Program-made: the position numbers and the translations under genes
Assembly: GCA_031430615.1 (NCBI GenBank)
Contig: JANPBV010000306.1
Span: 1 to 41,713, forward strand
Source of the DNA: Ignavibacteria bacterium
GTDB taxonomy: Bacteria; Bacteroidota; Ignavibacteria; Tepidaquicellales; OLB5
Length of the DNA: 41,713 bases
Direction: 5' to 3'
Shown here: positions 9,404-40,241 of the stretch, one piece after another
Layout: every line of letters begins with the position of its first letter
Position numbering within the stretch: position 1 is the stretch's first letter
The notes under the pieces: generated by a model
Seen by the model: the letters and a program-made list of their open reading frames with translations, nothing else
Told to the model about the DNA's origin: nothing
The model's database searches: none

Positions 9404-9698
9404 AAATTTCTATTCAAAATTGAATACAATTTAACAAAGGAAATTAAGAATAAATGTATGTAAATACTATGAAATTCAATATTTAATAAACTTCATTAAA
9501 TTTAGAACTGTGACAATAACTAATTCTCTTTATTGAGATGTCTTTTATCAAAATAATATAAAACTCATTTTTTTGATAAACCCGAAATAATAAATACCTG
9601 AGTTTCAAACATCACTTACATATATTTATGCATTTTGGTTATAAAAACTATTGATTTGGTATATTCAATATTCTCTTAAATCTTATAACATAAATCGT

Positions 9699-9706
9699 TA
9701 ATTTTG
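9699..9706 (+). promoter_or_regulatory. candidate Bacteroidota-type -7 box (TAATTTTG) for the S9 peptidase gene
   Basis: Matches TAnnTTTG 53 nt upstream of the ATG at 9759. The motif carries little information in AT-rich DNA. Confidence 0.35.
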
Positions 9707-19380: not shown

Positions 19381-20643
19381 TTATGTTTTTAATTTTTTCT
19401 TTTTGGCAGCAGGGAAAAGGACATTGTTCAAAATAAGTCTGTAGCCGGGTGAGTTTTTGTATTGTGAAAGATCCGTTTTGGGGTCACCGACTGCATGCTG
19501 GTAATCTTCAGGGTCATGCCCGCCGTAGAGTGTAAACGTACCTCTTCCGTAATTACCGTGAACATACTTAACCCAATTGGTGCCGTCATTCTTGGCAAGT
19601 ATAGTCATGTTTGGCTTTATGAATTCTTCCTTAAAGCCTGACTCCTGTCCCAAAAAGCCTTTTATTGCCGCAGTGTGGTCCTGTATCAGCATTGTTGGTA
19701 CAGGGTCTATCTTAGCGGAGAAATCAAACAATGTAAAATAATCATTGTATTGTCCCATCATTAACTCAGAGTCGGTAATATCAATATCTGAATACTCGTA
19801 CACATACGGATTTAACTGTATCTGGAAATTCTGAAACACCATGCATTCAGTATAATCAAGTTTTTCATTTGCAGCCTGGTCATACGGGTCGCCATCATAC
19901 ATGGCGTCGCATATATCAGTGTACTGCGAAGCAAGAGCTATATCAGGTGTCGTAGTGCCTGAGCACATTGTGAACATAAAACCGCCGTTAGAAACATACT
20001 CTTTCAGTTTTTTAACTACAGCAAGCTTTAACTGAGATACTTTTTGGTATCCCATCTTTTTTGCCATATCTTCGTTAGTCTGCTTCTGTGTTAAATACCA
20101 TGCTGAGGAACCGAATGCTGCGAAGAACTTTCCGTACTGACCCGTAAAATCTTCATGGTGCAGGTGTATCCAATCGTAATCTTTTAATTTACCGTTAAGT
20201 ACTTCCTCATCCCAAATTTTATCGTAGGGAATTTCGACGTAATCCAGAGCTAATTGAACTGCATCATCCCATGGCAGTGAATTAGGCGGAACGTAAACTG
20301 CAATTTTTGCGACTTTCTCAAGCCTTACAACATCCATATTGTTTTCTTCATTCTGCACTTCTGCATAGACCTGTGCTGCCTGAGTGCCGGAAAGCAGTTC
20401 AAAGCTTACACCTTTTGCAGTGCATTCAGCCGCAATTTCAGTCGTGTAATCGAACATAAATGAGCCGCCGCGATAGTTTAGGAGCCAATCAAGCTCTTTA
20501 CCGCCAAGCAAATGCCTGTAAGCAATACCGTAAGCCCTTAAGTGATCGTTCTGTGAATTTACATCCATAGGGATAAGCAGTTTTTGCTGCGCAAAGACTG
20601 ATGATGCTAAAACCAGCAGTATTATTGTTAAAAATTTCCTCAA
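19381..20643 (-). CDS. secreted hypothetical protein (420 aa)
   Basis: Long ORF with signal peptide MRKFLTIILLVLASSVFAQQ and an apparent TTG start. I cannot confidently recognise any motif in it. Confidence 0.7.
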   Translation of the reverse strand: MRKFLTIILLVLASSVFAQQKLLIPMDVNSQNDHLRAYGIAYRHLLGGKELDWLLNYRGGSFMFDYTTEIAAECTAKGVSFELLSGTQAAQVYAEVQNEENNMDVVRLEKVAKIAVYVPPNSLPWDDAVQLALDYVEIPYDKIWDEEVLNGKLKDYDWIHLHHEDFTGQYGKFFAAFGSSAWYLTQKQTNEDMAKKMGYQKVSQLKLAVVKKLKEYVSNGGFMFTMCSGTTTPDIALASQYTDICDAMYDGDPYDQAANEKLDYTECMVFQNFQIQLNPYVYEYSDIDITDSELMMGQYNDYFTLFDFSAKIDPVPTMLIQDHTAAIKGFLGQESGFKEEFIKPNMTILAKNDGTNWVKYVHGNYGRGTFTLYGGHDPEDYQHAVGDPKTDLSQYKNSPGYRLILNNVLFPAAKKKKLKT

Positions 20644-22386: not shown

Positions 22387-22794
22387 TTATATTATTTCAA
22401 CTTCGCCTGTTGCTATAACATCGCCGTTCTTTTTTAAACAGCTTACTTTGTACTTGCCTTTTTCTTTGAATTCAACGTCATCAAAATGGATGTAATCCCA
22501 GCTTGACTGAACGGTGAACGGGAATGTATCAACTGCTTTACCTGTCGCAGCATCAGTAACGTTTATATCAACATCCTTTTCTCCGATAGGATTTTGAAGT
22601 TTAACCATTACAGTTATTTTACCGGTTTTAAATTTTTCGCCTTCGCCAATTTCTTTGGTTACGTATCTTTCGCAGAAATAAAGTTTATCACCTGAAAATT
22701 TATCCGTTATCTGCTGGATCTGTTTTATCTTACCGCAGCCTGAAAATGCAACCATGACCGCAAAAAGAACTAAAGCAATTTTTGTGAATCTCAT
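22387..22794 (-). CDS. lipoprotein, paralog of 2108..2512
   Basis: Lipobox VAFSGC. Shares the YFCERY..GKITVMVK block with the 2108..2512 product. Confidence 0.7.
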   Translation of the reverse strand: MRFTKIALVLFAVMVAFSGCGKIKQIQQITDKFSGDKLYFCERYVTKEIGEGEKFKTGKITVMVKLQNPIGEKDVDINVTDAATGKAVDTFPFTVQSSWDYIHFDDVEFKEKGKYKVSCLKKNGDVIATGEVEII

Positions 22795-22829
22795 TTTTTG
22801 AATTTCTCCTGTATTGTTTTGATTAAATA

Positions 22830-23240
22830 TTATATAACCTGTACCTGTGAAGTATTTGCCGGGTTGTATTTTATGTTAATTTTATCACCAACTCTTGGTA
22901 TAGCAATTTTTGATACAGCGGTTTCTGCGGTTGTTTCAAATGGTACGCCAAACTGAGGGGTAACCATTAATTTCAATTTTACTACCGGATTGAAATTAAT
23001 AAGCGCGCCGGTATCTTCGATACCTAAAACTTCGGCTGATGCGCCCATACCTGTTTGTCCAAGATTGCTTGTATCTGTATAATTCTTTGCCATATTTAAT
23101 GATGCATTTGTCTGGTCAACAAAATCCTTTCCCATGAAAGTTTTTGTTAAAAAGCCTGATACACCTGAGTTAATAGCTTTATCAGCATTTTCTAATGCTT
23201 TTTTTGGGTCATTTTCAATTTTTTTTCCGAATCCAAACAT
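22830..23240 (-). CDS. hypothetical 136-aa protein
   Basis: First ORF of the minus-strand cluster, with no signal peptide. A candidate -7 box (CAAAAATA on the plus strand, 23293..23300) lies upstream. Confidence 0.6.
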   Translation of the reverse strand: MFGFGKKIENDPKKALENADKAINSGVSGFLTKTFMGKDFVDQTNASLNMAKNYTDTSNLGQTGMGASAEVLGIEDTGALINFNPVVKLKLMVTPQFGVPFETTAETAVSKIAIPRVGDKINIKYNPANTSQVQVI

Positions 23241-23319
23241 GGTTTTGATTCCTTTCTTGTTTTAATTGTTTTATTTGAATTTTTTCATTCATACAAAAAT
23301 AACAGGGTTACTTAAGCTA

Positions 23320-23459
23320 TACAAAGAAATGATTTTATCTTTGTTTATTCTTTGATGTGATTCATTGTTACTTCAGTATTGCATTACAATGTTAAATTAC
23401 TGTTTTATATAGATTAAAGTGTGGAAAAATTTACTTTGAAGTTTTGTTTCTGCAAAAAA
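23320..23459. promoter_or_regulatory. copy M1 (shortened) of the conserved bidirectional control module
   Basis: TACAAAGAAA at 23320..23329 is a degenerate form of the TACAAAGATA decamer. GTGGAAAAATTTACTTTGAAGTTTTGTTTCTGCAAAAAA at 23421..23459 is a gapped match to the block found in M2-M4. Confidence 0.45.
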
Positions 23460-23577
23460 TGAAAGAATTTATCGTTTGTTTCGAGATGAAAACCCGTGTT
23501 TTTGCTATTTTATTTCATTTTCTGCAATATTTGAGAAATTTTCAACGCTTTTGTTTTTAATTTAGCAAAGATTAAAA

Positions 23578-24015
23578 TTATTTAACTAACAGCATTTTTT
23601 TCATTTCGATGTAGCCTTCGGTTTGCAGACTGTATGTATAAACACCCGAAGAAAGATTTGAAACATCATACAAAATTTTGTAAGTTCCTTCACTTAGATC
23701 ACGGTTTATAATTTCATCTATCTCCTGTCCCATCATATCCATAAGTGTTATCCTTACCTGCTGCTTATCTGGGATACTAAAATATAATTCATTTTCAGTT
23801 CCTTCCTTACCCGGAAATACCTGCCCAAGATAAAACCAGCTTGGGGCTTGAGTAGATGTTTGAATTACCTTTGCTTTGGTATTGATTGAATGGTTAAAGT
23901 TTCCCGGGGAAATATTATTATAAAAATCATCATTCAGAACCGATTGCGAAAAAACCGGAAGTGAAAATAAACTAAACGTAAATAATGCAATCGTAAATAA
24001 TATTTTAATTTTCAT
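23578..24015 (-). CDS. minimal T9SS C-terminal-domain protein (signal peptide + ~45 aa + CTD)
   Basis: Signal peptide ..VFSQ and C-terminal Por_Secre_tail-like segment YFSIPDKQQVRITLMDMMGQ..GVYTYSLQTEGYIEMKKMLLVK. Confidence 0.75.
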   Translation of the reverse strand: MKIKILFTIALFTFSLFSLPVFSQSVLNDDFYNNISPGNFNHSINTKAKVIQTSTQAPSWFYLGQVFPGKEGTENELYFSIPDKQQVRITLMDMMGQEIDEIINRDLSEGTYKILYDVSNLSSGVYTYSLQTEGYIEMKKMLLVK

Positions 24016-24049
24016 TGCTATACTCTAAGAACTTAAATTTTTATATTGC

Positions 24050-24248
24050 TACAAAGATAATTTACAGTTAAGAGCAATACAAAGAAACCATTTAATAGAA
24101 GTTTAGAAGAACCGGCATGAAATTAGAAACGAAAGTGGTTCTGGTATTACTAACTGATTTATATATAAACAAGATAGAGCGGGAATATGAATTACGAATG
24201 TTTTGATATCTCAGTTTTGGAATTGATTTTCGGATTGTTTTTAAAATC
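24050..24248. promoter_or_regulatory. copy M2 of the conserved bidirectional control module (between the T9SS mini-protein and SPFFN copy 3)
   Basis: TACAAAGATA at 24050..24059 reads TATCTTTGTA on the minus strand, a TAnnTTTG -7 box 37 nt before the minus-strand ATG. CAAA lies 20 nt further on. The block TTTTGGAATTGATTTTCGGATTGTTTTTAAAATC is at 24215..24248. Confidence 0.55.
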
Positions 24249-24360
24249 AGATGTAATTTCATGCATTTATTTATGAAAAATGGCTTAAACGGTTATAAAA
24301 TTGTGTTTTAAATCCACCAAAAGTAGTTTATATTGTTTTAAAATTACCGCAAAAACATCG

Positions 24361-25815
24361 ATGATAAGCGCTACTTTACTTGGAATGCTGAGCAAGTTTA
24401 ATCATAAGGAATTTAAAGATTTCGGAGAATTTGTGAAATCTCCTTTTTTTAATAAGAACATTCATGTAAAGCAGCTTTATGATTATCTTAAAAAGTTTTA
24501 TCCTGAATTCAGTGATAAAAAACTTGATAAAGAAGTTGTTTTTAAAAATCTATTTGTAGCGAAAAAATATAATGATGGATTTTTAAGAACGGTAATTTAT
24601 AACCTGGGAAAACTTGCTGAGGATTACCTTGCATACATAAATTTCAGGAAAAATGATCTTAACAGGGGAATAAGCCTGCTAAAAGAGCTTAATGAAAGAA
24701 AACTTGAAAAAGTCTTTCTAAGGTATTATGCCGAGATTGAAGAAGATATCAATTCATTGAAATACCAGGACAACGATTATTTTTACAAAAAGTTTGAGCT
24801 TCAAAACCAGAAAGAAACATATATGGACTGGAGTAAATTCAAGCATAAAGATTTCAAAAATTATACCACAAATACAACTTCATATATAAATGATGAGTTA
24901 ACAAGCTATTACTTATCTAAAGCCCTTAATCATTACCGTTTTATGCTTGATAAGAATATGTATGAACAGCTGGATTACAACTATGATTTTATTGAGCATA
25001 TCATGGAATTCTTATTGAAAAAGGATAAGTATTTTAGAGAAAAGATTAAAATAAAACTTCATCTATACGAAGTGCTTCTTATTAAAGATAAAAAGCATGA
25101 GTATTTCAAAATACTAAAAGATATTTTCATAAACGAAATGAAGCAGCTATCCCGAAGCGACCTCTACAGTCTTCATAATATTCTGCAAAGCTACTGTGTC
25201 TACCAGAATTATAATGATAAGCCCGGATACCTTGCGGAAAGATTTGAGCTTTACCGTATTTGCATCAATGAAAAACTGTATTCGGCTACTGAGCACATTT
25301 ATTTTGATGACCTTATGTTTGGTAATATTGTTAATACAGGAGCCGCAGTGCATGATTTTATATGGACTGAGAATTTTATTGAAGAGTTCAAAAATGCAAT
25401 TTCTCCTGATAACGCAGATGTTGTTGTAAATTATTCTTATGCAAGGCTGGCATTTGCCAGGAAAGAAAATGAAAAGGCGCTGTGGTATTTGAACAGTATC
25501 AAAACCATAAGGCATATCCAATATAAACTCCCTGTGAGAGATCTTACCCTGATGTGCTATTACGAAATGAATATGCTCAGCCAGTCATCATACCAGATAG
25601 ATTCATACAGGCATTTTTTAACGAACAATAAGGGCTCACTTTCAGATATAAGATTTGAAAGAATTATGAACTTCCTTAAGTTCTATACCAAGTTAGTTAA
25701 GAATAAAGAAAAAGGGAACATTAAGGAATGTATTAAGCTAAAAGAAGAACTTGGAAGTTCGAATAATGTGATTGAAAAAAGATGGCTTACTGAAAAAATA
25801 AAGGAGTTAGTATAA
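24361..25815 (+). CDS. SPFFN-family protein copy 3
   Basis: The start moves to ATG 24361 because the 24301 extension has no counterpart in the paralogs. Blocks: GEFVKSPFFNKNIHVKQLYDYLKKFYPEF, YNDGFLRTVIYNLGKLAEDY, IDSYRHFL and KRWLTEKIKEL. Confidence 0.8.
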   Translation: MISATLLGMLSKFNHKEFKDFGEFVKSPFFNKNIHVKQLYDYLKKFYPEFSDKKLDKEVVFKNLFVAKKYNDGFLRTVIYNLGKLAEDYLAYINFRKNDLNRGISLLKELNERKLEKVFLRYYAEIEEDINSLKYQDNDYFYKKFELQNQKETYMDWSKFKHKDFKNYTTNTTSYINDELTSYYLSKALNHYRFMLDKNMYEQLDYNYDFIEHIMEFLLKKDKYFREKIKIKLHLYEVLLIKDKKHEYFKILKDIFINEMKQLSRSDLYSLHNILQSYCVYQNYNDKPGYLAERFELYRICINEKLYSATEHIYFDDLMFGNIVNTGAAVHDFIWTENFIEEFKNAISPDNADVVVNYSYARLAFARKENEKALWYLNSIKTIRHIQYKLPVRDLTLMCYYEMNMLSQSSYQIDSYRHFLTNNKGSLSDIRFERIMNFLKFYTKLVKNKEKGNIKECIKLKEELGSSNNVIEKRWLTEKIKELV

Positions 25816-25816
25816 G

Positions 25817-27271
25817 TTGAATAAAAGCAGTCTTATAGAATCATTCAGAACATTTTCGCAAAAGGAAATGAAAGAATTTTCTGAATTTGTATCATCTCCG
25901 TTTTTTAACAAGAATGTTAATGTTGTTAAACTGTTTGACCTTATTAAAAAAAATTACCCTGAGTTTGATCAGAATAAAATAGAAAAAGAAAAGATTTTCG
26001 CAAAGCTATTTCCCGGGATCCCTTTTAAAGACAGCACTTTACGGCTTTTAATGTATTATTTGTACGAGCTTGTTGAAAAATTTCTCGCATATAACAGGTT
26101 TAGCAGCGATAAATTCTTTCATAAAGAGGTTCTGCTTGGTGAACTGTTTGACCGTAAGCTATTTAAGGATTATGAAAAGATAATTGAAGCGGCTAATGAT
26201 GAACTTGATAACTTTATTGTAAGAGATGCGTATTATTTCAGGAACCGATATGAATTTGCTGAGCATAAATTAAGTTATCTTGCCGAAATCTATATGGGAA
26301 AGTATGAGAAGTATTTAACCAAAGAAAACATTCAGCTTTTTTCTGATAACATAACATATTTTTACCTTATTAGTGTGCTTAAGTATTACGCAATAACCCT
26401 TAATACAATGTATCTGTATAATGTTAAAGTAGATACAAGCGTATTTGATAACATTCTTAAAAACTTTAACATTAATCAGTTTACAAATGTGCCTATGATA
26501 ACTATTTATTACAGGGTTATCCAGCTTTTTTTAAGACCTGATGACGAAGAAAATTATTACAGCCTTAAGGAACTGATAATAAAAAATGAAGATTTAATTG
26601 GTCAGTCAATTGGCGACCTTTATATAAATCTGGAAAATTATTGCGCAAGATGCTCAAGAAAGGGGAAACACAAATTCCTTCAGGAATCATTTGATATATA
26701 TGAAATGGAGCTTAAGAAAAAGACATACTCGCAGTATGGCTCTATGCCTAACTCTTTCTTTTCAAGCTTTGTTGTCACTGCAGGCAAACTTAAAAAATTT
26801 GAATGGCTGAGAAAATTCATAATAGACTATAAGGATGAATTAAACGAGCAATCAAAAGAGGCATATTATTTTTACAGTATGTCATTTCTTGAAAATGAAG
26901 AAGGAAATTTCGTGAAAGCCCTTGAATACCTTGCCAAGAGCAAGCCTGAAGAAGTGTACCTTAAAATGGATCTTCGCATTCTTCAATGCAGGATATACTA
27001 CAGCCTCGCTTGGAATATTCCGTTACAATCACTGCTTGATACATTTAAAAAGACAGTTCAGAATAATAAATATATAACTGATTTGAGAAAAGTTCAGTAT
27101 TATAAATTCATAAAATACACAAACCAGTTAAATAATATCAGGTACAAAGATGATAAGGCTTCCGCAGATGTTCTTCTGGATGAATTGAAACATGATGAGT
27201 TTTTTGCATATAAGATATGGGTAGTAGATGAAGCAGAGAAACTTGCTTATACAGGAGGTCAAAACAATTAA
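25817..27271 (+). CDS. SPFFN-family protein copy 4
   Basis: The TTG start is 1 nt after the TAA of copy 3 (TAA-G-TTG). Blocks: SEFVSSPFFNKNVNVVKLFDLIKKNYPEF and LDTFKKTV. The C-terminus is the most divergent of the five. Confidence 0.75.
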   Translation: MNKSSLIESFRTFSQKEMKEFSEFVSSPFFNKNVNVVKLFDLIKKNYPEFDQNKIEKEKIFAKLFPGIPFKDSTLRLLMYYLYELVEKFLAYNRFSSDKFFHKEVLLGELFDRKLFKDYEKIIEAANDELDNFIVRDAYYFRNRYEFAEHKLSYLAEIYMGKYEKYLTKENIQLFSDNITYFYLISVLKYYAITLNTMYLYNVKVDTSVFDNILKNFNINQFTNVPMITIYYRVIQLFLRPDDEENYYSLKELIIKNEDLIGQSIGDLYINLENYCARCSRKGKHKFLQESFDIYEMELKKKTYSQYGSMPNSFFSSFVVTAGKLKKFEWLRKFIIDYKDELNEQSKEAYYFYSMSFLENEEGNFVKALEYLAKSKPEEVYLKMDLRILQCRIYYSLAWNIPLQSLLDTFKKTVQNNKYITDLRKVQYYKFIKYTNQLNNIRYKDDKASADVLLDELKHDEFFAYKIWVVDEAEKLAYTGGQNN

Positions 27272-27303
27272 TCTTCACATTTATAAATATTATTACTTTG
27301 TTC

Positions 27304-27486
27304 TCAATTGAATACTGACTGTATTCCCGTAATTATCAGTATTACTATGATCAATAAAAATACAATCCCCAAAATAACAGCCGTCGTTATAAAAGTATTT
27401 TTCGCCTGTTTGATAAATCTATTATTATCCTTATCCGCTTTATCTGACTTATAGTATTCATTTAACTTTTCAAAGTATGAACTCAT
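27304..27486 (-). CDS. hypothetical 60-aa C-terminally anchored membrane protein
   Basis: Charged N-terminal half plus one C-terminal TM segment. It lies after the hairpin at 27508..27537, so its expression is uncertain. Confidence 0.35.
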   Translation of the reverse strand: MSSYFEKLNEYYKSDKADKDNNRFIKQAKNTFITTAVILGIVFLLIIVILIITGIQSVFN

Positions 27487-27507
27487 TTGTTATTCCTTTC
27501 TATTAAA

Positions 27508-27537
27508 TAGCCCGAGAATATTTCGTATCCCGGGCTA
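27508..27537 (-). terminator. weak hairpin downstream of lipoprotein copy 1
   Basis: TAGCCCG / CGGGCTA is a 7-bp stem with a large loop and only a short U-run. Confidence 0.35.
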
Positions 27538-27594
27538 TCATTCAATTAACGTAAAGTATTACTATGAAAATAATGCCTTCTTACTTAGCCTGAA

Positions 27595-27999
27595 TCATTT
27601 TTTTTGCATCTCTTGTGCAGCCCAGGTTGAAATATCTGACATTCTTTTGGCCTGCTCTGTGGTCATTTTAGCTGATACCTGCGATAGTTTTGTAGAAAAA
27701 TCCGTAGACTTTTTCCCAAGCTCAGTGTACTTATCTGTAACGCTCATATCACCAGCTTTGAACTTCTTGGTAACTTCAACATATTCTTTCATTATCTTTT
27801 CATAATCAGTAATGAGTCCGTCTATTTCATTGCCGCTTTCCGTCTTGGTATCAGTTTTTGTATCGCTCTTTGTTTCTGTCTTTGAATCAGTCTTTGTGTC
27901 AGTTTTTGTATCTGAATCCTTCTTGCCGCAGCTGTTTAACGAGAATGAGATGATGAATAAAGCTAAAAAAAGAACCGCTGTTTTGAATGCGTTTTTCAT
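27595..27999 (-). CDS. lipoprotein with (T/S)(D/E)(T/S)K tetrapeptide repeats and a helical C-terminal domain
   Basis: The start moves to ATG 27999, which aligns with the paralog start and the upstream AAAGAGGCAGAA. Lipobox LNSCG is followed by DSDTKTDTKTDSKTETKSDTKTDTKTES. The C-terminal ~75 aa are almost identical to those of 28616..29008. Confidence 0.8.
   Translation of the reverse strand: MKNAFKTAVLFLALFIISFSLNSCGKKDSDTKTDTKTDSKTETKSDTKTDTKTESGNEIDGLITDYEKIMKEYVEVTKKFKAGDMSVTDKYTELGKKSTDFSTKLSQVSAKMTTEQAKRMSDISTWAAQEMQKK
27835..27918 (-). repeat. 12-bp-period coding microrepeat (7 TDTK-type units)
   Basis: Residues D28-S55 of the lipoprotein. This copy has one more 4-aa unit than the paralog. 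Confidence 0.75.
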
Positions 28000-28056
28000 T
28001 GTTCTGCCTCTTTTTGTTTGGTTTTTGGAATGTTTGTTTATCATGATATTTTAAAC

Positions 28057-28086
28057 AGTGATGCGATGAGTTATTACCGTATCACT
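28057..28086 (-). promoter_or_regulatory. conserved leader hairpin, copy A (AGTGATGCG-N12-CGTATCACT)
   Basis: 9-bp inverted repeat with one mismatch and a 12-nt loop. It lies about 60 nt upstream of the lipoprotein ATG and downstream of the candidate -7 box at 28152..28159. Confidence 0.6.
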
Positions 28087-28149
28087 CTGAAAAATTTGAT
28101 GTGAAGATTGTTTCATAATACTAAACGATCTTATAGTTTTCATTTTATA

Positions 28150-28338
28150 TACAAAGATAGATTTATTCCAGACGGTAAAAAAAGAATATTTAAGGTCAAT
28201 GTTTAAAAACGGAGTATCTTTATACATCAAAAATTTATGCATATTTCCGTTTTTTTTATTATTTTAACCACTTTATTCCATTCCATTTGTTTGAAGAATT
28301 TATATTTTGGAATTTATTTGAAGATTGTTTCAGAAAAC
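28150..28338. promoter_or_regulatory. copy M3 of the conserved bidirectional control module
   Basis: TACAAAGATA at 28150..28159 and block TTTTGGAATTTATTTGAAGATTGTTTCAGAAAAC at 28305..28338. The whole interval 28150..28395 aligns end to end with 33055..33297 and has nearly the same length. Confidence 0.6.
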
Positions 28339-28390
28339 TGCATGACTAAAAACGTTAGCATACTGTATATACTATATTTTTAAAGGACTT

Positions 28391-28534
28391 ATGGCTAAAA
28401 CACACCGCTTTGTTTAATTTTTTTTTGATGAACAACCGCTAAAGGTGTTTAATAACTTTGTTAAATCTCATTTATTTGATACTAACAATTACAAATATCA
28501 ATATGTATTTTTTCATTTTTGTTGGAGTTATTAA
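28391..28534 (+). pseudogene. decayed, truncated 5' remnant of a sixth SPFFN-family gene
   Basis: Reads ATG..TAA(28415)..FFFDEQPLKVFNNFVKSHLFDTN, compared with copy 5 KKFDKQQLKDFNNFVKSPFFNTN. It has an in-frame stop after 8 codons. Similarity ends before the 13-bp-stem hairpin at 28534..28564. The upstream 80 nt are homologous to the copy 5 promoter region. Confidence 0.6.
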
Positions 28535-29145: not shown

Positions 29146-31029
29146 TTATTTTACTAGCATCATTTTCTTGACGTCGGTGAAACCTTCTGCTTCAATTTTA
29201 TAGAAATATACACCTGAAGATAAAGTAGATGCGTTGAAATCTACTTTATATGAACCGGCATTGTAGTTTCCGTTAACCAGCTCTGAAATCTGTTTACCCA
29301 GCATATCATATACAACCAGCTTAACCATTCCTGATTTTGGAATGCTGAAATTAATATTAGTCACCGGATTGAACGGATTAGGATAGTTTTGGCTTAATTC
29401 AAATCTATCAGGAACATTATTGCCGATAGGTTCAACTGCGGTTATAAGCTGCTCAGCATTATAATATACGTTGTTTGGACCCTGGCCGGCGTATGTTAAG
29501 GCTGAGTTTAAAATACCGTTTGTATTAATAATAGCACAAACAGGCGCGAGTAGACCTGTGCTCATTACACTGTTTCTTTTATACTGATATGTACCCATGC
29601 TTGTAGGTGTTCCTCTTCTTATGGTAACAGAATCACCGTTCTGGTCAACTGTACACATCATTACATAGCCGCCTCCTGTTGTGTTTGAGTCTGACGAGCA
29701 CCATGTGAAATCCCTGAGTCCTACGCTTGTAAGATTCTGGTCTATAGTCCATGTTGTTCCGCCGTTTAATGAATAATGATACTTTGCAACGTTAGCTTTG
29801 GTGCATGTTACAATCATCTTTTTCTGCACAGTCCCGTGCTGCTGAACAACTGTTAAGCATGGTTTTTCATATTTTATTCCTGATGTATTAGTAATATAAT
29901 ATGGATGATATGTAGTACTCGGAAACTCAGGGGTTGCTAATACCCTTATTTCATAATCTGTAGCGGAAAATCTTCTTTCAATCGCAATATAAATTGAATC
30001 ACTGCCGTTTTTTTCACCATACTGCACGCTTGGGTAGAAATCGTTGTTCCCCGTTACAATTGCTGAATTTGAATGTGTTGAAGCCCAGTTTGTTGTAAAA
30101 TAATGCCTTAGGCCTACATGTGTGTTTGTATTGGTAGCTTCTTTAACAACGGCATGCATAAAAGTAGGCACATCATAATACTGTCCGTCACTGCACGCAG
30201 AAACATATTCATATTTATTGCCGGCCGGTGGCGTGCCAACAACCTGGTTAAACTGAGCAGTTCCGTTTCTTCTTGATGACCATACCCAAAGCTGTGCGTC
30301 GTTGCCGTTTACATTAGGCGCGGTTGTAAAATAAACTAAAAACCTTGTTGAATCAGGGTTTGAGTTATTTACGCTCCTGTTTTCTACAAGCATGGATAAT
30401 GTAAAGAGCTTCCATGACGCAAAAGACAGAGTTTGGCTCATGGGCCATGTTGCCCCGTTGTTTGAAGACATGTAAACAGTTATGCCGTCAAGTGTTCCGC
30501 TGATGCCGGTCCTTGCTATGCATAAATACATCCAGTTGTCGTCTCCCTGTTTTAAGTCAAGCCTTCTGAAAAAGCCGCCGTTTGTGCCTAAAGTTCCGCT
30601 GTAAGGCTGTACATCACTTGTATACCAGTCTGTCTGGAATGGTGGATTATTAAAGTTTGTGCTGAACTCAGCTTTAAATTCACTTTCCAGTGATGGCTGA
30701 TTTTGCTTTGACGGGCTATTCTGTTCAATGTATGACTGAATTAAATTCCCGATTCTCAGCTTCTCATTTTCATTGCTGGAATTCTTAGCATCCAGGTACT
30801 GGTTAATAAGCTCCTGCGGAATGTTCACATCATTTCTCTGAAGAACAGATTCCTGTCTTTCGCTGTTCCTGATGCCCCAGTCACCGGGGACTTCCTTTGA
30901 TTCCTTTGATTCATGTGATTCCTGTGCAAGTGAAACTGATGAGATAAGCAATAAGATCATTGCTTGAATTAAAAAAAGCGTTTTGAAATGTTTTCCCGAA
31001 GAAATTCGGGATTTTACTGTGTTCAACAT
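29146..31029 (-). CDS. T9SS-sorted secreted protein (627 aa), possible sialidase-like beta-propeller core
   Basis: Signal peptide ..SVSLAQE and an ESKESKE low-complexity linker. Asp-box-like motifs SSNNGATW and SLNGGTTW. C-terminal Por_Secre_tail QNYPNPFNPVTNINFSIP...KKMMLVK. Confidence 0.85.
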   Translation of the reverse strand: MLNTVKSRISSGKHFKTLFLIQAMILLLISSVSLAQESHESKESKEVPGDWGIRNSERQESVLQRNDVNIPQELINQYLDAKNSSNENEKLRIGNLIQSYIEQNSPSKQNQPSLESEFKAEFSTNFNNPPFQTDWYTSDVQPYSGTLGTNGGFFRRLDLKQGDDNWMYLCIARTGISGTLDGITVYMSSNNGATWPMSQTLSFASWKLFTLSMLVENRSVNNSNPDSTRFLVYFTTAPNVNGNDAQLWVWSSRRNGTAQFNQVVGTPPAGNKYEYVSACSDGQYYDVPTFMHAVVKEATNTNTHVGLRHYFTTNWASTHSNSAIVTGNNDFYPSVQYGEKNGSDSIYIAIERRFSATDYEIRVLATPEFPSTTYHPYYITNTSGIKYEKPCLTVVQQHGTVQKKMIVTCTKANVAKYHYSLNGGTTWTIDQNLTSVGLRDFTWCSSDSNTTGGGYVMMCTVDQNGDSVTIRRGTPTSMGTYQYKRNSVMSTGLLAPVCAIINTNGILNSALTYAGQGPNNVYYNAEQLITAVEPIGNNVPDRFELSQNYPNPFNPVTNINFSIPKSGMVKLVVYDMLGKQISELVNGNYNAGSYKVDFNASTLSSGVYFYKIEAEGFTDVKKMMLVK

Positions 31030-31222: not shown

Positions 31223-32683
31223 TCATTTAACTAAAACCATTTTCTTTATTTCTGTAAATCCATCTGCTTCAATCCTGTAGAAATAAATACCTGAGGAAAA
31301 TTCTGTGGCGTCAAAATCAACCTTATATGAGCCTGCATTATATTCTCCGTCAACAAGTTCAGCAGCCTGTTTGCCAAGCGCATCGTAAACAACAAGCTTA
31401 ACGATTCCTGATCTTGGAATGCTGAAGTTAATATTTGTTACCGGGTTAAATGGGTTTGGATAGTTCTGGCCTAACGAAAAATTATCCGGTAAATTATTGC
31501 CATTAGGTTCAATTCCAACCGGATTGCCGGTGGGATCGCGCTTGTAGTATATTTCATAATTCCCATCACGATAGTCATACCATACCAAATGAACTGTCGG
31601 ACCGGAGATAGTAACCGAAGGAAACCCTGAGAAGGCGGCGGCACTATTAGTCAGCCTTATATCAGCTCCCCAGCTAATGCCTCCATCAGTTGTACGCTTG
31701 TAATATATCTCATCATCGGCATCACGCATGTCCTGCCACACCAAATGCGCAGCTTGGCCTGAAACAGCAATCGAAGGATACCATGAATGAGAAGAGCTAT
31801 TTGTAAGCCTGGTATCAATTCCCCAGCTTACCCCTTCATCTGTAGAGCGCTTATAATATATTTCATCATTAAGAATTCCATTGCGATTGTCATGCCATAC
31901 GAGATGAATATCTGAGCCTGAAGCAGCAACCGATGCATACCTCGAAGCGGAAGCGTTATTTGTCAGTCTTGTATCAGTTCCCCAGCTTACTCCTCCATCT
32001 GTAGAACGCTTGTGGTAAATCTCACTGTTTCCATCGCGCTGGTCATCCCATGCAACATGCACAACTGTTCCTAAAACTGTAATGGATGCATATTTTGATA
32101 ATCCGGCGCTATTCGTCATCCTTGTATCAGCTCCCCAGCTTATTCCACCATCTGTAGAGCGCTTGTAGTATATCTCTTGGTTTCCATTGCGGCTATCATC
32201 CCATACCAAATGAACAGTTGTACCGGATACTGTAAGTGAAGGGCTATATGAACCTCCGGGGCTATTCGTCATCCTTGTATCAGCTCCCCAGCTCGTTCCT
32301 TCATCTGTAGAGCGTTTGTAGTATATTTCATCGTCTCCGTCACGCGTGTCGTTCCATACCAAATGCACTGTTGAACCTGAAACTGCAATCGAAGGACTAT
32401 GTGATTGACTGGTATTATTTGTCAGTCTTATATCGGCTCCCCAGCTTAGACCGCCATCAGTGGAACGCTTGTAATATATCTCATTGTTTGAATTCATCAA
32501 TAAATCCCGGGTGTCATACCATACAACATGTATAACTGAACCTGTTGAAGCTACACACCATGAATTATTGAAAGAAGTATTTGATGCAGCAGGATCATTT
32601 GTTAGTCGTGCCTCTGGTAACCACTGCGTATATGACGAGTTTGTTAAAATAAGAATTAGAAGAATAATTAATACAGTTTTCAT
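31223..32683 (-). CDS. T9SS-sorted BNR/Asp-box repeat beta-propeller protein
   Basis: The start moves to MKTVLIILLILILTNSSYTQ. It has about 7 tandem ~47-aa repeats of the form W.D.R.G..EIYYKRSTDGG.SWG.D.RLTN...........SG..VHLV. The C-terminal Por_Secre_tail ends in KKMVLVK. Confidence 0.85.
   Translation of the reverse strand: MKTVLIILLILILTNSSYTQWLPEARLTNDPAASNTSFNNSWCVASTGSVIHVVWYDTRDLLMNSNNEIYYKRSTDGGLSWGADIRLTNNTSQSHSPSIAVSGSTVHLVWNDTRDGDDEIYYKRSTDEGTSWGADTRMTNSPGGSYSPSLTVSGTTVHLVWDDSRNGNQEIYYKRSTDGGISWGADTRMTNSAGLSKYASITVLGTVVHVAWDDQRDGNSEIYHKRSTDGGVSWGTDTRLTNNASASRYASVAASGSDIHLVWHDNRNGILNDEIYYKRSTDEGVSWGIDTRLTNSSSHSWYPSIAVSGQAAHLVWQDMRDADDEIYYKRTTDGGISWGADIRLTNSAAAFSGFPSVTISGPTVHLVWYDYRDGNYEIYYKRDPTGNPVGIEPNGNNLPDNFSLGQNYPNPFNPVTNINFSIPRSGIVKLVVYDALGKQAAELVDGEYNAGSYKVDFDATEFSSGIYFYRIEADGFTEIKKMVLVK
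31549..32623 (-). repeat. coding tandem repeats (~140 bp period) of the BNR propeller
   Basis: Units such as CCCCAGCT(T/C)A..CC.CCATC(A/T)GT(A/G)GA(A/G)CGCTT(G/A)TA(A/G)TA recur at a regular ~140-bp spacing. Confidence 0.8.
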
Positions 32684-32756
32684 TTTAATTGTCTTTTCTT
32701 TAAAATTTGATAAAATTATATGCATTATTTTGTATTATTAATTAATTTTTGCTTTT

Positions 32757-33035
32757 TTATGCTACTTTTTTGCTTACAGGTTCACTCCACGGACCCTGCA
32801 TCTTTGAATTTACTGCTGCCACCCTGAATAAATACATCTTGTTTTGTTTCAGACCCTTAATTGTGTACTTTGATTCATTTATTATATCTACCAAAACCCA
32901 TTTATCTTTTAAGCTTTCGACCTTGTATTCAATTACGTATGAATCTGCAATTTCCATTCCATCCCAATTAAGATCAACTTCGTTTTTAACATCGCCATTT
33001 GCTGCGCTTAAAGATGATATGATCAATTCCTGCAT
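32757..33035 (-). CDS. stand-alone fibronectin type III domain protein (92 aa, no signal peptide)
   Basis: VDLNWDG..ADSYVIEYK......W......ESKYTIKGLKQNKMYLFRVAAVNS.GPWS is a typical Fn3 pattern. It is the first gene behind the -7 box at 33057..33064. Confidence 0.65.
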   Translation of the reverse strand: MQELIISSLSAANGDVKNEVDLNWDGMEIADSYVIEYKVESLKDKWVLVDIINESKYTIKGLKQNKMYLFRVAAVNSKMQGPWSEPVSKKVA

Positions 33036-33054
33036 TCTTGTTTTAAATTTGTCT

Positions 33055-33242
33055 TACAAAGATAGAATCTGAAGCGCCCCAATAAAAAGAAATTTCAGCA
33101 CTAATGTTTTTAATGAAACAGGAATATTGCAGAAGGAAATTCTTTAAAATTGGATTTTTGTATTCTTTTTAGCATATTACGCAGAGTAGATTGTTAGTAG
33201 ATTTTGGTCTGTGGAATATATCGGCAGATTGTTTCTGAAAAG
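33055..33242. promoter_or_regulatory. copy M4 of the conserved bidirectional control module (between the Fn3/T9SS operon and SPFFN copy 5)
   Basis: TACAAAGATA at 33055..33064 is a -7 box 22 nt before the minus-strand ATG. Block TGGAATATATCGGCAGATTGTTTCTGAAAAG is at 33212..33242. Confidence 0.6.
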
Positions 33243-33294: not shown

Positions 33295-34758
33295 ATGATC
33301 GAGAGTTCGCTTATTTTATTACTGAAAAAGTTCGATAAACAGCAGTTGAAAGACTTTAATAATTTTGTAAAGTCACCATTCTTCAATACAAACAGCGCGC
33401 TGGTTAAGCTATACGAGTACATCAGGAAACAATATCCTGATTATAACCCCGAGAAGCTTGAAAAAGAATTTGTTTACAAAAAGCTCTTCGGAAAGACGGA
33501 ATACAACGATGGATTTCTAAGAGTATTGATGTCAAACCTTCAGAGTCTGGCTGAGGAGTACCTTACATACAACAGATTTCAGGCAGACACTTTAATAAAG
33601 AAGAAATATTTACTTGATGCATTGAGCGGTATAGGAGCAAGAAAGCAGGCTGAAAAAGTACTGAATGAAGGATTGAAAGAAATTTCTAAATTATCGCCGC
33701 AGAACCCGGATGATTACCTTGGAATGTATCATATGGCTTTTTATAAAAGGTATTTTTACAGCACCCAATTTGTTGTTAATAAAAGTAATAAACCTGATGA
33801 GAGTATTTTTGATGAACAGAAATATTTTATTATGCATTTTCTTTTAAGAACGCTTGCAGGTCATTTCTACCATCTTAATCAAATGCAGATAATAAGCTAT
33901 GAACCAAAACTTATTTTTCTTGATGAGATCACTTTATTTCTGGAAAGGAATCCCGGGTATCTTGAAGTGCCAATGCTTAATATTACCTTTCTGCGGCTGC
34001 TATTACTTAAGAATAATGACATAAAGGACTATTACAGATTAAAAGAATCATTTTATAGAACATTTGAAAAACTGGACATTAAAGACGCGTTTAATACGAT
34101 ATCTGTTATACTCAATTACTGTCAGAGAAATTACTCGCAAACAGATGATGAATTATTTCAATTGGAAAAATTTGACATACTTAAATTCGCAATAAAGAAT
34201 GATCTTAATACATTTGAAAAAAGTGAGGGCATGGATGGAAGCAGGTTTCACAATATAGTAAGTACCGCGCTTGATTTCAAAGAAACTGGCTGGGCTGAAG
34301 ACTTTATCAAAAATTTCGGCAATAAACTAGATCCGGATAAAAAAGATTACCTGATTGCATTTGCTGATGCAATGGTTCTTTCTTCAAGGAAAGAAAATGA
34401 TGAAGCTTTGGAGCGTTTATCAAAGCTAAGGAACCCGGCTTCATCAAATGATAAGTTCAATTTAAAAGTACTTCAGATGAAAATTTATTTTGAAATGGAT
34501 TTTATTGACCAGGCAGAAAGTTCTGCAGATTCATTCAGGCACATGATCCAAAACGATAATGTTTTGCCTGAAGCATACAAGGAATTACATAAGAATTTTT
34601 ATAATTTCTACATGAAATTATTATCTATAAAGCTTAAACATGATAGAACTTTGTTAATTGAACTTTTGGGAAAGTTGAATTCCGTAAGAAATGTAATTCA
34701 GAAGAAGTGGATCGCTGAAAAGGTCAATGAAATAGAAAATGAAATGAATGTTAGCTGA
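33295..34758 (+). CDS. SPFFN-family protein copy 5
   Basis: 487 aa. Blocks: NNFVKSPFFNTNSALVKLYEYIRKQYPDY, YNDGFLRVLMSNLQSLAEEY, ADSFRHMIQN and KKWIAEKVNEIE. Confidence 0.8.
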   Translation: MIESSLILLLKKFDKQQLKDFNNFVKSPFFNTNSALVKLYEYIRKQYPDYNPEKLEKEFVYKKLFGKTEYNDGFLRVLMSNLQSLAEEYLTYNRFQADTLIKKKYLLDALSGIGARKQAEKVLNEGLKEISKLSPQNPDDYLGMYHMAFYKRYFYSTQFVVNKSNKPDESIFDEQKYFIMHFLLRTLAGHFYHLNQMQIISYEPKLIFLDEITLFLERNPGYLEVPMLNITFLRLLLLKNNDIKDYYRLKESFYRTFEKLDIKDAFNTISVILNYCQRNYSQTDDELFQLEKFDILKFAIKNDLNTFEKSEGMDGSRFHNIVSTALDFKETGWAEDFIKNFGNKLDPDKKDYLIAFADAMVLSSRKENDEALERLSKLRNPASSNDKFNLKVLQMKIYFEMDFIDQAESSADSFRHMIQNDNVLPEAYKELHKNFYNFYMKLLSIKLKHDRTLLIELLGKLNSVRNVIQKKWIAEKVNEIENEMNVS

Positions 34759-38010: not shown

Positions 38011-38952
38011 ATGGGTATAATTTTTATTACAAAATTTCCGCAGTTTGAACAAGAAGGATTTAATATTAAGGAATATTATAATAGCTTTAATACCTCTAAT
38101 GTTATTATAAACGCTAGCTCCAAAAATATATATTACCCGGTTAATTCCGGCAGCCCTCTTACCGTAAAACATGTTTTTAAGGGAGAAGAATATTATATCA
38201 ACCATTACTGCAAATACAGGGTTAAGATTGATAGCTTCATCATATTTAATGATCAGCAAAAGTATGGTAGCTATATAGATTCCGAAGAAGTGACTGAATC
38301 ATTTTCCGTATTTTTTAATCCGAATTATGTGAGAGATGTTTTAAGCTCATTAATAACTTCAGACGATATGATTTTGAAAAACCCATTCTATCCTAAACGA
38401 AGTACACAGCAGGTCAATTTTATTGAGAAACTCTATAACAGGGATAATTATATTGTACCTATTCTTGAGAAATTGCGAACAGCAATTATAAATAAAAATT
38501 ATTCCGAGTCATACTTTAATGAACAGTTATACTTTTTACTTGAAGGGCTGATATTTATCAATAGGAAGCTTTATAATGAGATTGAAAAAGTAATCGCAGC
38601 TAAAAAATCCACCAGGCTTGAAGTTTACCGCAGGCTGTGCATTGCGAAGGATTATATTGAATCATGCTATAACGAAAAAATAACACTCGCATCCATGGCA
38701 AAAGCGGCAAGCATGTGTCAGCATCACCTTTTAAGGGAGTTCAGGAAATTTTATAAGATTACTCCATACCAGTATTTAATGGAAGCAAGGCTCCTAAACG
38801 CAAAGAAATTATTGATGCAGCGGTCTAAATCCGTTTCAGAAATTTCTACTCAAGCTGGATTTGAATATTTAAGCTCGTTCAGCGAAGCCTTTAACAGGCG
38901 CTTCGGGCTCTCACCCACGGCATTCCGCAATACTCAAAAAGTCAATTCTTAG
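38011..38952 (+). CDS. AraC family transcriptional regulator
   Basis: C-terminal double HTH (ITLASMAKAASMCQHHLLREFRKFYKITPYQYL...ISTQAGFEYLSSFSEAFNRRFGLSPTAFR). Confidence 0.85.
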   Translation: MGIIFITKFPQFEQEGFNIKEYYNSFNTSNVIINASSKNIYYPVNSGSPLTVKHVFKGEEYYINHYCKYRVKIDSFIIFNDQQKYGSYIDSEEVTESFSVFFNPNYVRDVLSSLITSDDMILKNPFYPKRSTQQVNFIEKLYNRDNYIVPILEKLRTAIINKNYSESYFNEQLYFLLEGLIFINRKLYNEIEKVIAAKKSTRLEVYRRLCIAKDYIESCYNEKITLASMAKAASMCQHHLLREFRKFYKITPYQYLMEARLLNAKKLLMQRSKSVSEISTQAGFEYLSSFSEAFNRRFGLSPTAFRNTQKVNS

Positions 38953-39026
38953 TAAATCATAAATCACAATATTTCTTATTTTTGAGAAATCTGTAATAAA
39001 TCAGAATTCTTAAATTATACTAATAT

Positions 39027-40241
39027 ATGAGATATATTTTATTCCTATTTGCTCTTCTTTTTACTTTCACGAATACGTACTCCCAAAACGGGTGGCAGCA
39101 GCAAACCAGCGGAACCCCTTCAACCATACTTGGAGCGGTAATGACTGATATTAATACCGCTTATGTATGCGGAATTGACGGCATAGTGTTAAAATCCACA
39201 AACGGAGGAAGCAACTGGCAGCCGCTGAATACTGGTACTCCACGGTTTCTAAGGAGTATAACTTATGTTAATTCAAATATTGTGTATACAGCAGGTGAGC
39301 TCGGAATAATCCTTAAAACAACTAACGGCGGAGGTAACTGGGCGACTTTAAACAGCGGAACAAATAATACGTTTGTGAACATACATTTTGTTGATGTATC
39401 AAACGGCACCGCTGTTGGACTCAACGGAACAATACAAAGAACAACTGATGGGGGTGATAACTGGTTACCTCAAACAAGCGGTGTAACGGATGAGCTTACA
39501 GGAGTGCATTTCACTAATGCTAATACCGGATACACCTCAGGCTTTGGAGGAAGAATTCTGCAAACTACAAACGGCGGCACGAACTGGAATCCACTCACAA
39601 CCAATGTAACAAATGATATGAGAGCAGTTTGTTTTACAGATGCTAATACAGGAATTGCAGTGGGTACATCAGGCAGGATTATAAGAACAACAAATGCAGG
39701 CGGAAACTGGGTAAGTATTACGAGCGGTACATCAGCTGTGCTATATTCGGTTTATTTTGCAAACAACCAAACGGGCTATATTTCAGGCGGCGGAGTGATT
39801 TTGAATACAACAAACGGGGGATTGAACTGGCAAGCGCAGCCTGAGAATGTTTCATCTGATTTATACAGCATACATTTTGCAGACGGCTTAAACGGAATTA
39901 CAGTTGGACAAAATGGAGTAATTTTAAAAACCGTCAGCGGGGGGATTGGTATTCATCAAATATCAAATGAGGTACCTCAGAAATTTACTCTGTATCAAAA
40001 TTATCCAAATCCTTTTAATCCTTCAACTGTAATTACTTTTGATCTGCTTAATTTATCTCATGTAAATCTTTCAATTTTTGATATAACAGGTAAAATTATT
40101 GATAAAATTGTTAATGAAAAACTTTCCGCCGGAAAATACAATGTGGAATGGAGCAGTAATAACTATCCGAGCGGTATTTATTTTTGTAGGTTAGAAACCG
40201 ATAAATTTAGTTCTGCTATAAAAATGCTGATAGTAAAATAG
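39027..40241 (+). CDS. T9SS-sorted Ycf48/BNR-like beta-propeller protein
   Basis: Signal peptide, then about 7 repeats of ~40 aa with (T/S)TNGG.NW. C-terminal Por_Secre_tail YQNYPNPFNPSTVITF...IKMLIVK. Confidence 0.85.
   Translation: MRYILFLFALLFTFTNTYSQNGWQQQTSGTPSTILGAVMTDINTAYVCGIDGIVLKSTNGGSNWQPLNTGTPRFLRSITYVNSNIVYTAGELGIILKTTNGGGNWATLNSGTNNTFVNIHFVDVSNGTAVGLNGTIQRTTDGGDNWLPQTSGVTDELTGVHFTNANTGYTSGFGGRILQTTNGGTNWNPLTTNVTNDMRAVCFTDANTGIAVGTSGRIIRTTNAGGNWVSITSGTSAVLYSVYFANNQTGYISGGGVILNTTNGGLNWQAQPENVSSDLYSIHFADGLNGITVGQNGVILKTVSGGIGIHQISNEVPQKFTLYQNYPNPFNPSTVITFDLLNLSHVNLSIFDITGKIIDKIVNEKLSAGKYNVEWSSNNYPSGIYFCRLETDKFSSAIKMLIVK

Follow-up and report, generated by a model that had tools for sequence, protein, structure and literature searches.

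A 41.7-kb stretch of contig JANPBV010000306.1 from an Ignavibacteria bacterium (assembly GCA_031430615.1; GC content ~33%), called the window throughout, carries five full-length open reading frames (ORFs) of 484-488 aa, designated here paralogs B to F, which encode members of a large, unannotated family of cytoplasmic proteins that is almost confined to Ignavibacteria. Genes of this family stand head-to-head with a neighbouring operon and have a conserved site in the shared intergenic region, the arrangement typical of local transcription regulators and their targets: 86% of units are divergent from their upstream neighbour, and a conserved promoter box is found in 47-64%. With about even confidence, we read these proteins as locus-specific (one-component) transcription regulators of secretome operons, which would bind DNA. 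We favour local regulators because the genes form isolated divergent units, lie beside a promoter box that is nearly exclusive to them, and encode a conserved basic N-terminal domain joined to a variable, helical, sensor-like body.

A protein family absent from curated libraries

The five ORFs (Table 1) had first been singled out as mutual paralogs in an annotation made without database searches, referred to here as the original prediction. Their coordinates, lengths and kinship all hold, with pairwise BLASTP E values running from 1e-22 to 1e-136: B and C are 43% identical (E 1e-136), and the other pairs among B-F are 23-30% identical over their full length (E 1e-22 to 1e-59), with D and E sharing only 27%. 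The ORF of D can be extended to a TTG at 24301; the alignments to its orthologs, which are found at 55-95% identity in many Ignavibacteria metagenome-assembled genomes (MAGs), and those to profile hidden Markov models (HMMs) begin at the ATG at 24361. The further sequence features read by eye in the original prediction were also recovered. These are the N-terminal motifs F-x-x-F-V-x-S-P-F-F-N and YPxF, the C-terminal DSF(R/K)H block with its terminal KW(L/I)xEK helix, and the pattern of conserved ends around a variable core, for which column entropy in an alignment of 60 sequences is lowest over residues 1-100, highest over 100-320 and intermediate over 320-484. Positions S27, P28, N31, P48, W475 and K479 (D numbering) of that alignment are near- or fully invariant. 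As also predicted, all five copies lack a signal peptide, a transmembrane segment (the maximum Kyte-Doolittle value in a 19-residue window is 1.4) and a Walker A motif (GxxxxGK[ST]).

An exhaustive profile search of 1.84 billion representatives, in clusters at 50% identity, placed 12,354 clusters in the family at E <= 1e-3 and 7,295 at E <= 1e-30, and the top 150 clusters are all full-length (465-506 aa). Every source name recovered was "hypothetical protein", and the named organisms are Ignavibacteria MAGs, save a few soil-metagenome records. A scan of a genome collection was run with alignments narrower than the whole-family alignment. Among 90 genome loci, almost all are labelled Ignavibacteria, Ignavibacteriales or "Chlorobi OLB5", with a handful labelled as other Bacteroidota or Chlorobiota MAGs (deposited labels, taken as given). 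One MAG can hold 5-6 or more separate family loci.

Curated libraries gave no name to the family, in keeping with the expectation that no Pfam family could be assigned, and they held no confident match to any characterised family. Searches of Pfam, NCBIfam, PADLOC and PHROG with the five copies returned nothing at threshold (PADLOC no match; PHROG only matches at E >= 0.005, to families without known function), and Pfam returned nothing at threshold for 46 diverse members either. Sequence-profile searches of the PDB with full-length and N-domain alignments gave noise or designed tetratricopeptide repeat (TPR) proteins at E >= 0.17, the full-length alignment alone giving designed TPRs only, at E > 0.6. 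No relative was found on viral contigs in IMG/VR, and our literature searches on Ignavibacteria, the type IX secretion system (T9SS) and TPR proteins, and on the promoter motif described below, found nothing relevant. A mobile, phage or defence origin is ruled out by the lack of viral relatives together with conserved chromosomal synteny.

Structure prediction points to three parts. A basic, conserved N-terminal helical domain spans ~100 residues; it is followed by ~220 variable residues and then by a TPR-like C-terminal region of moderate conservation, and these last two parts are together predicted to form a helical solenoid. The AlphaFold2 model built from the 60-sequence alignment (pLDDT 92.5, pTM 0.84) is all-helical, with 24 helices, and Foldseek matched the full model to generic TPR solenoids only in the PDB (best E = 4e-3, probability up to 1.0), among them APC/C, COP9 (CSN), LGN, LpoA, DdvA and phage Rap. 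Matches to Pfam TPR_1, TPR_2, TPR_19, ANAPC3 and ARM_TT21 recur over residues ~300-420 of the 46 diverse members, every one below its gathering score. Together with the model, these sub-threshold matches support the earlier suggestion that the C-terminal half is TPR- or solenoid-like. The N-terminal 112 residues modelled alone reached pLDDT 93.3 with no beta-strands, and the domain carries a mean net charge of about +5 over residues 1-70, with conserved K/R positions. Thus the structure prediction and Foldseek comparison that had been proposed as a check yielded a TPR-like solenoid and an N-domain without a match. A homology search with the N-domain only, for other domain architectures, found fragments only. 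No other family has the SPFFN N-terminal domain or the C-terminal KWLxEK helix.

The five copies were originally thought, together with remnants, to represent an unusual density. This density is no local oddity: the copies hold conserved syntenic positions in related genomes. The site of B and C is flanked by genes for a Peptidase_S9 protein and a GFO_IDH_MocA oxidoreductase, near AddAB and RecG, and in two related loci (L001 and L002) it carries one family gene. The B/C tandem is a lineage-specific state, a single gene occupying the syntenic site in related genomes; this gene is nearer C in some genomes (P0004, 43% identity to B) and nearer B in others (P0025, 53%), and some contigs carry both types. 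Paralog F has an ortholog in L023, L025 and L028 and none in L021.

In L021 and L023, D and E again occur as a pair, the two genes overlapping by 4-8 bp. In the window, the junction reads TAA-G-TTG, as originally noted, with AAGGAG at 25801-25806 ending 10 nt 5' of the TTG. Of 20 orthologous pairs of the D/E type, 6 have a junction of -8 nt, 8 one of -4 nt and 3 one of +1 nt; 19 of the 20 fall within -8 to +6 nt, and GGAG usually lies upstream. The translational coupling of D and E proposed from the single junction is therefore supported by its retention in about 20 genomes, and the coupling is ancient and conserved, because the junction has been kept across these pairs even though D and E are so weakly identical.

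Divergent arrangement and the associated promoter element

To place the family genes in context, we surveyed 104 loci (1.69 Mb), calling genes with our own ORF caller, which does not call ORFs <70 aa, and using HMMs that we built for family members and the T9SS C-terminal domain (CTD). Duplicate removal left 151 family units: 119 single genes, 31 tandem pairs and 1 triple. Of these units, 121/141 are divergent from the gene upstream (median gap 309 bp) and 106/138 are convergent with the gene downstream (median gap 44 bp), whereas only 23% of background adjacent gene pairs lie on opposite strands. In 88/130 units (68%), the genes on either side both lie on the opposite strand, compared with 60/805 background genes (7%), and the arrangement persists when units are reduced to types defined by orthogroup (40/57, p = 3e-32). 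A family gene almost never shares an operon with its neighbours.

Aligned intergenic regions of the family loci show conserved blocks. The k-mer CAAAGAA is present on the family strand in 23/51 orthogroup representatives versus 7/98 controls. On the divergent strand, the element reads (T)TTCTTTG, exactly 20 or 21 nt, then TAnnTTTG, with AAAC about 13-14 nt further upstream. The motif TTCTTTG-N20/21-TAnnTTTG precedes 57 of the 120 genes divergent from a family gene (47%), compared with 0/149 control divergent promoters and 1/15 control promoters of CTD genes (1/164; Fisher p = 9e-25), and it was found in 0/120 cases on the family gene's own strand. With <=1 mismatch allowed, 85/133 units have the promoter <=450 nt from the family start codon, at orthogroup-specific distances, and only 3/133 have it on the family gene's strand. 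The possibility of an invertible promoter is ruled out by these strand counts, exact and with one mismatch alike.

TAnnTTTG appears to be a general promoter element in these Ignavibacteria, because it is present in about 50% of control divergent promoters. No -33 TTTG is detectable in those promoters, and the sole -33 TTTG signal among 223 control TAnnTTTG sites came from the 136-aa gene of the D/E module. The sequence corresponds to the Bacteroidota -7 box as described for sigma-ABfr (PMC7366714), and our control promoters agree with the statement in the same paper that a -33 motif is not general in Bacteroidota. A promoter for an alternative sigma factor is not favoured, given that the -7 box is the general one and that the sigma-70 consensus is not enriched; for instance, the region 22700-28300 contains 26 sigma-70-type -35/-10 matches versus 28 expected.

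The full motif is shared across 20 orthogroups even though their proteins have only about 25% identity, and therefore the TTCTTTG box and its spacing are maintained by selection and not by recent common descent. This bears directly on a further possibility, that these proteins are generic TPR scaffolds whose cellular role has nothing to do with the genes next to them, and that an ancient duplication of whole cassettes passed on the arrangement and motif passively. Such passive inheritance would fit the presence of copies at conserved syntenic positions among housekeeping genes, and the decayed module described below shows that cassettes do duplicate as units. However, at ~25% protein identity neutral intergenic DNA would keep no similarity, yet the box, the 20/21 spacing and the orientation are all kept in the 20 orthogroups, and an orientation bias of 83-86% over 57-64 unit types needs selection. 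We consider the scaffold explanation quite improbable.

In the window itself, exact matches to the motif number two (P1 and P2), both facing away from D/E, where 0.01 would be expected by chance. All four matches with <=1 mismatch (P1 to P4) are linked to family genes, the one beside the decayed gene included. In 9 other loci, the ortholog of the 136-aa gene (cluster c10) likewise has a P2-type promoter in front of it. The 136-aa and 135-aa genes, which are kept upstream of the D/E orthologs in L021 and L023, make up the second transcription unit in the D/E module. This unit has a TTCTTTG-N20-TAnnTTTG promoter of its own and is seen in at least 10 genomes. P4 lies 204 nt from the F start codon, compared with 202-203 nt in F orthologs.

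Of the family remnants mentioned in the original prediction, one stands, a decayed F-like stub. Its segment 28424-28489 (+), DEQPLKVFNNFVKSHLFDTNN, is 68% identical to F residues 13-34 (tblastn, 22 aa, E = 0.003). The DNA of window positions 28100-28520 is a decayed duplicate of the F module: the promoter box and the GGAAT element described below are kept, and of the family gene only ~40 codons, interrupted by stops, are left. The P3 box is ~202 nt from the inferred stub start, as in F orthologs, and this promoter now serves the DUF6591 gene without an intact family neighbour, a natural case of regulator loss. More frameshifted or fragmented family genes occur in L011 (19450-20712), L016 (5762-7289 and 9920-11434) and L020 (4385-4609 and 12675-13306); some of these are in long-read assemblies and may reflect sequencing indels instead of true pseudogenes.

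The family strand also carries a second element, GGAAT-N12-(A/T)TGTTT, which is present in 37/126 regions upstream of family genes, representing 10 orthogroups, an enrichment of about 12-fold relative to control intergenic DNA. It is located about 80-180 nt before family start codons, the stub included, and could be the family gene's own promoter or operator. We also considered it as a sigma-54 or extracytoplasmic function (ECF) promoter; by our own reading, its spacing fits neither consensus.

The genes that the family faces are often those of secreted proteins. T9SS-CTD proteins are encoded at 33% of positions -1, 36% of positions -2 and 25% of positions -3 relative to the family gene, versus about 10-19% elsewhere, and at the level of unit types a CTD gene lies within three positions upstream in 38/64 and within three positions downstream in 22/62 (Fisher p = 0.008). 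The divergent cargo includes SBBP beta-propellers, BNR/Sortilin-like proteins, Peptidase_S74 fibres and small CTD proteins. Accordingly, the placement beside secretome genes originally described for the window stands as a statistical tendency in the wider survey, where an absence of linkage could have emerged; it does not extend to B/C, which face a peptidase S9 without a T9SS sorting domain.

This linkage to T9SS cargo raises the possibility, also put forward in the original prediction, that the family acts after transcription on the products of its neighbours, as chaperones or holdases for T9SS cargo or for the small fn3 proteins described below, or as immunity-type partners, with the motif being merely a strong cargo promoter. 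TPR proteins do act as secretion chaperones in other systems. In contrast, T9SS cargo crosses the inner membrane by Sec, and we know of no class-specific cytoplasmic chaperones for it. The neighbours are also very diverse, ranging over beta-propeller, BNR, Peptidase_S74 fibre, peptidase S9, DUF6591 and small proteins, none of the cargo has toxin domains, and partners of this kind are normally co-transcribed, which the family genes and cargo operons almost never are. As a result, we give a role of this kind little credence.

Table 1. Family genes, promoter elements and associated genes in the window.
Feature	Position	Strand	Description
Paralog B	6423-7889	-	488 aa, GTG start, 50 nt 3' of C; ORF and HMM match
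Paralog C	7940-9403	-	487 aa; ORF and HMM match; syntenic single-copy orthologs between Peptidase_S9 and GFO_IDH_MocA genes
Degenerate promoter	9671-9706	+	TTCTCTT-N21-TAATTTTG, two mismatches, weak; before Peptidase_S9 gene, divergent from C
135-aa protein	22387-22794	-	Lipoprotein-like signal sequence ending in Cys; no Pfam match
136-aa protein	22830-23240	-	Downstream of P2; no Pfam match
P2	23294-23328	-	TTCTTTG-N20-TATTTTTG, exact; before 136-aa gene
145-aa secreted protein with T9SS sorting domain	23578-24015	-	First gene divergent from D; Por_Secre_tail E = 7e-7, signal sequence visible
P1	24052-24086	-	TTCTTTG-N20-TATCTTTG, exact; drives 145-aa T9SS-CTD gene divergent from D
GGAAT-N12-(A/T)TGTTT, two copies	24182-24203, 24219-24240	+	Between P1 and D start codon
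Paralog D	24361-25815	+	484 aa, first of coupled pair; ORF and HMM match
Paralog E	25817-27271	+	484 aa, TTG start; translationally coupled to D
P3	28152-28186	-	TTCTTTT-N20-TATCTTTG, one mismatch; before DUF6591 gene (27595-28044, -), divergent from stub
GGAAT-N12-TTGTTT	28309-28330	+	Between P3 box and stub start
Decayed F-like family stub	28388-28520	+	Interrupted by stop codons; DNA aligns with F module
627-aa T9SS cargo	29146-31029	-	Downstream of fn3 gene; Pfam Por_Secre_tail and BNR_2 across the two cargo genes
BNR-repeat T9SS cargo	31223-32725	-	Downstream of fn3 gene; Pfam Por_Secre_tail and BNR_2 across the two cargo genes
92-aa stand-alone fn3 protein	32757-33035	-	First gene divergent from F, no signal peptide; Pfam fn3 E = 1.6e-10
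P4	33057-33091	-	TTCTTTT-N20-TATCTTTG, one mismatch; before fn3/BNR/627-aa T9SS operon divergent from F
GGAAT-N12-TTGTTT	33213-33234	+	Begins 82 nt before F start codon
Paralog F	33295-34758	+	487 aa, unit of one gene; ORF and HMM match

Proposed function and its alternatives

The original prediction had named sensors or regulators, adaptors and chaperones as possible roles, and it had overlooked both the promoter motif and the 92-aa fn3 gene that faces F at a distance of 259 bp. It is the divergent arrangement and the near-exclusive promoter element that lead us to favour a regulator, which would work as follows. Each family gene, or co-translated pair such as D/E, would be its own transcription unit. 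The operon head-to-head with it, which in most cases codes for secreted or T9SS-sorted surface proteins and is sometimes led by an fn3 gene, would be driven by the -7 box together with the TTCTTTG box 20-21 bp upstream and the AAAC before that. Acting at the -33 box, either by itself or via RNA polymerase, the conserved N-domain would switch the neighbouring operon, while the variable solenoid would sense a signal specific to each paralog. D and E would probably act as a heteromer. DNA binding, activation as against repression, the ligand and the role of the fn3 protein are points on which we can only infer.

The fn3 gene belongs to a recurrent type. About a fifth of the family units (28, covering at least 12 orthogroups) face a first divergent gene for a stand-alone fibronectin type III (fn3) domain of 90-120 aa without a signal peptide, an unusual feature for a small fn3 domain, and the T9SS cargo genes are usually next in the operon. 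In the window, the gene escapes ORF lists with a 100-aa minimum and is masked by a 107-aa ORF on the + strand (32749-33072), which is a shadow ORF.

The recurrence of this small partner also fits a different scheme, in which the family proteins would be signal-sensing adaptors that make no contact with DNA. A shared factor, either the primary sigma or a dedicated regulator, would read the TTCTTTG box, and each TPR paralog would modulate that factor locally or through a partner (e.g., fn3) in the style of an anti-sigma factor or anti-activator. An identical core box in 20 orthogroups is what a single shared reader would leave, no DNA-binding fold was detected in the family, and TPR solenoids are typically protein-protein interaction modules. 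However, a diffusible adaptor needs no adjacency to its target promoter, yet adjacency is seen at 64-86%; it is the N-domain and not the solenoid that is the most conserved and basic part of the protein; and the modules encode no candidate for the shared factor. We therefore regard adaptors of this kind as unlikely, though less so than a scaffold or chaperone role.

Several observations weigh against the proposal that the family proteins are themselves local transcription regulators. The N-domain model has no significant Foldseek match in the PDB or BFVD (none in the PDB at E < 2), no DNA-binding fold was recognised, and no helix-turn-helix (HTH) family was found in Pfam at E <= 1. Because of this lack of a significant structural match, we do not claim a winged-helix or HTH N-domain, for which the best lead was the CadC winged helix at only E = 9 and probability 0.35. 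The -33 box is the same for many paralogs of one genome and therefore provides no paralog specificity by itself; a factor common to these paralogs, for example sigma or a different regulator, could be what reads it. In addition, 36% of units, B/C included, have no clear motif, and a scheme of one promoter per regulator is true of the D/E type only. The distances between orthogroups for fn3 and family proteins give no clear sign of co-diversification (Mantel r = 0.23, p = 0.16). As for the survey itself, the gene, CTD and signal-peptide calls come from our own simple scripts, and the loci were all sampled around family genes, so that copies of the motif elsewhere, without a family gene, are not countable.

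Going further than local regulation, we can put forward, as a tentative idea that we rather doubt, a new class of promoter-specificity factors. The SPFFN N-domain would read the AAAC...TTTCTTTG box 20-21 bp upstream of the -7 element and supply the -33 recognition, in a manner resembling sigma appropriation by MotA. The paralogs, at least a dozen per genome, would each gate one T9SS secretome operon according to a signal that its variable solenoid senses, with the fn3 protein as a feedback partner and D/E-type pairs as obligate heteromers.

Two other features of the window stand apart from the family. The gene for an AraC-family regulator (HTH_18) immediately precedes a BNR-like T9SS cargo gene in the same orientation (38011-40241, +); this arrangement is conserved in L021 and represents a different, conventional pairing of regulator and cargo. 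A 420-aa protein (19381-20643, -) is conserved, with a signal sequence and no Pfam match, and belongs to a cluster (c14) found in 18 loci; its gene adjoins a DUF4890 gene downstream of AddAB.

Significance and comparison with known systems

Wastewater, anammox reactors, sediments and aquifers are all rich in Ignavibacteria, which secrete many T9SS proteins, and to our knowledge almost nothing has been reported on the control of T9SS genes in this group. The family described here, with >7,000 sequence clusters, has no entry in Pfam or NCBIfam; it is accompanied by a sharply defined cis-element, such that the promoter box, the neighbouring family gene and the cargo operon together provide a testable regulon map. 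If the proteins do read the box, the N-domain would be a new DNA-binding domain, and the promoters would represent a new way of building a promoter in Bacteroidota-type transcription, where the role of the -33 element has remained unclear. Even otherwise, the family and its N-domain merit a database entry, and the promoter motif can be used now for annotating secretome operons in metagenomes.

Among known regulators, the RNPP proteins (Rap, NprR, PlcR, PrgX, Rgg and AimR) are similar in being cytoplasmic, in combining a small N-terminal domain with a TPR-like solenoid (a predicted one in the present family), and in forming multi-paralog families encoded beside their target genes, which are putative here. 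The structural likeness is weak, with phage Rap (8rte_B and 8rsv_B) matched by Foldseek at E = 0.17 and a template modelling score of 0.24-0.39. Unlike RNPP proteins, the family has no XRE-type HTH or Rap three-helix bundle (by Pfam at E <= 1 and the N-domain fold search), its members are longer (~485 aa versus ~290-420 aa), and its hosts are diderm Ignavibacteria as opposed to Firmicutes or their phages; sequence homology between the two was not detected. A gene for a secreted pro-peptide, a feature of RNPP systems, is not among the neighbour clusters, in a survey whose ORF size limit leaves short pro-peptides uncovered; the small neighbour that does recur is a folded fn3 domain lacking a signal peptide.

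The SARP/BTAD and MalT-LAL regulators join a DNA-binding module to a helical-repeat sensor, the domain logic proposed here, and their sites overlap the -35 region. In contrast to SARP, the family has no Trans_reg_C or BTAD domain (Pfam, 46 members, E <= 0.1), and in contrast to MalT, LAL and STAND proteins it has no P-loop, LuxR-type HTH (GerE), AAA or NB-ARC domain (Pfam and the Walker A scan). ECF sigma factors with a TPR extension (e.g., ECF42) were considered as well; no Sigma70_r2 or Sigma70_r4 matches were found, and there were no sigma chains among the Foldseek matches. As for the TPR superfamily in general (Pfam clan TPR), the family is predicted to share its all-helical hairpin solenoid, whereas its members reach no Pfam gathering threshold.

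With respect to promoter architecture, phage T4 MotA and class II activators similarly use a conserved box at a fixed distance upstream of the -10/-7 element, at promoters otherwise without a -35/-33 element. The analogy with MotA is functional only, there being no fold or sequence similarity and no known AsiA-like partner. The Bacteroidota primary-sigma promoter (-33 TTTG/-7 TAnnTTTG) has the same -7 box and a TTTG core near -33 (PMC7366714). Here, in contrast, the -33 element is longer, reading (T)TTCTTTG, its spacing is strictly 20/21 and AAAC lies upstream of it, and the extended box is confined to family-adjacent operons, at 47% versus about 0.6% of control divergent promoters. The likeness to RNPP, SARP or MalT-type TPR regulators is thus best taken as analogy, the family having no HTH, winged helix, BTAD, P-loop, sigma regions or pro-peptide gene by the searches described above, while the N-domain and the cis-element are new and belong to a large unannotated family.

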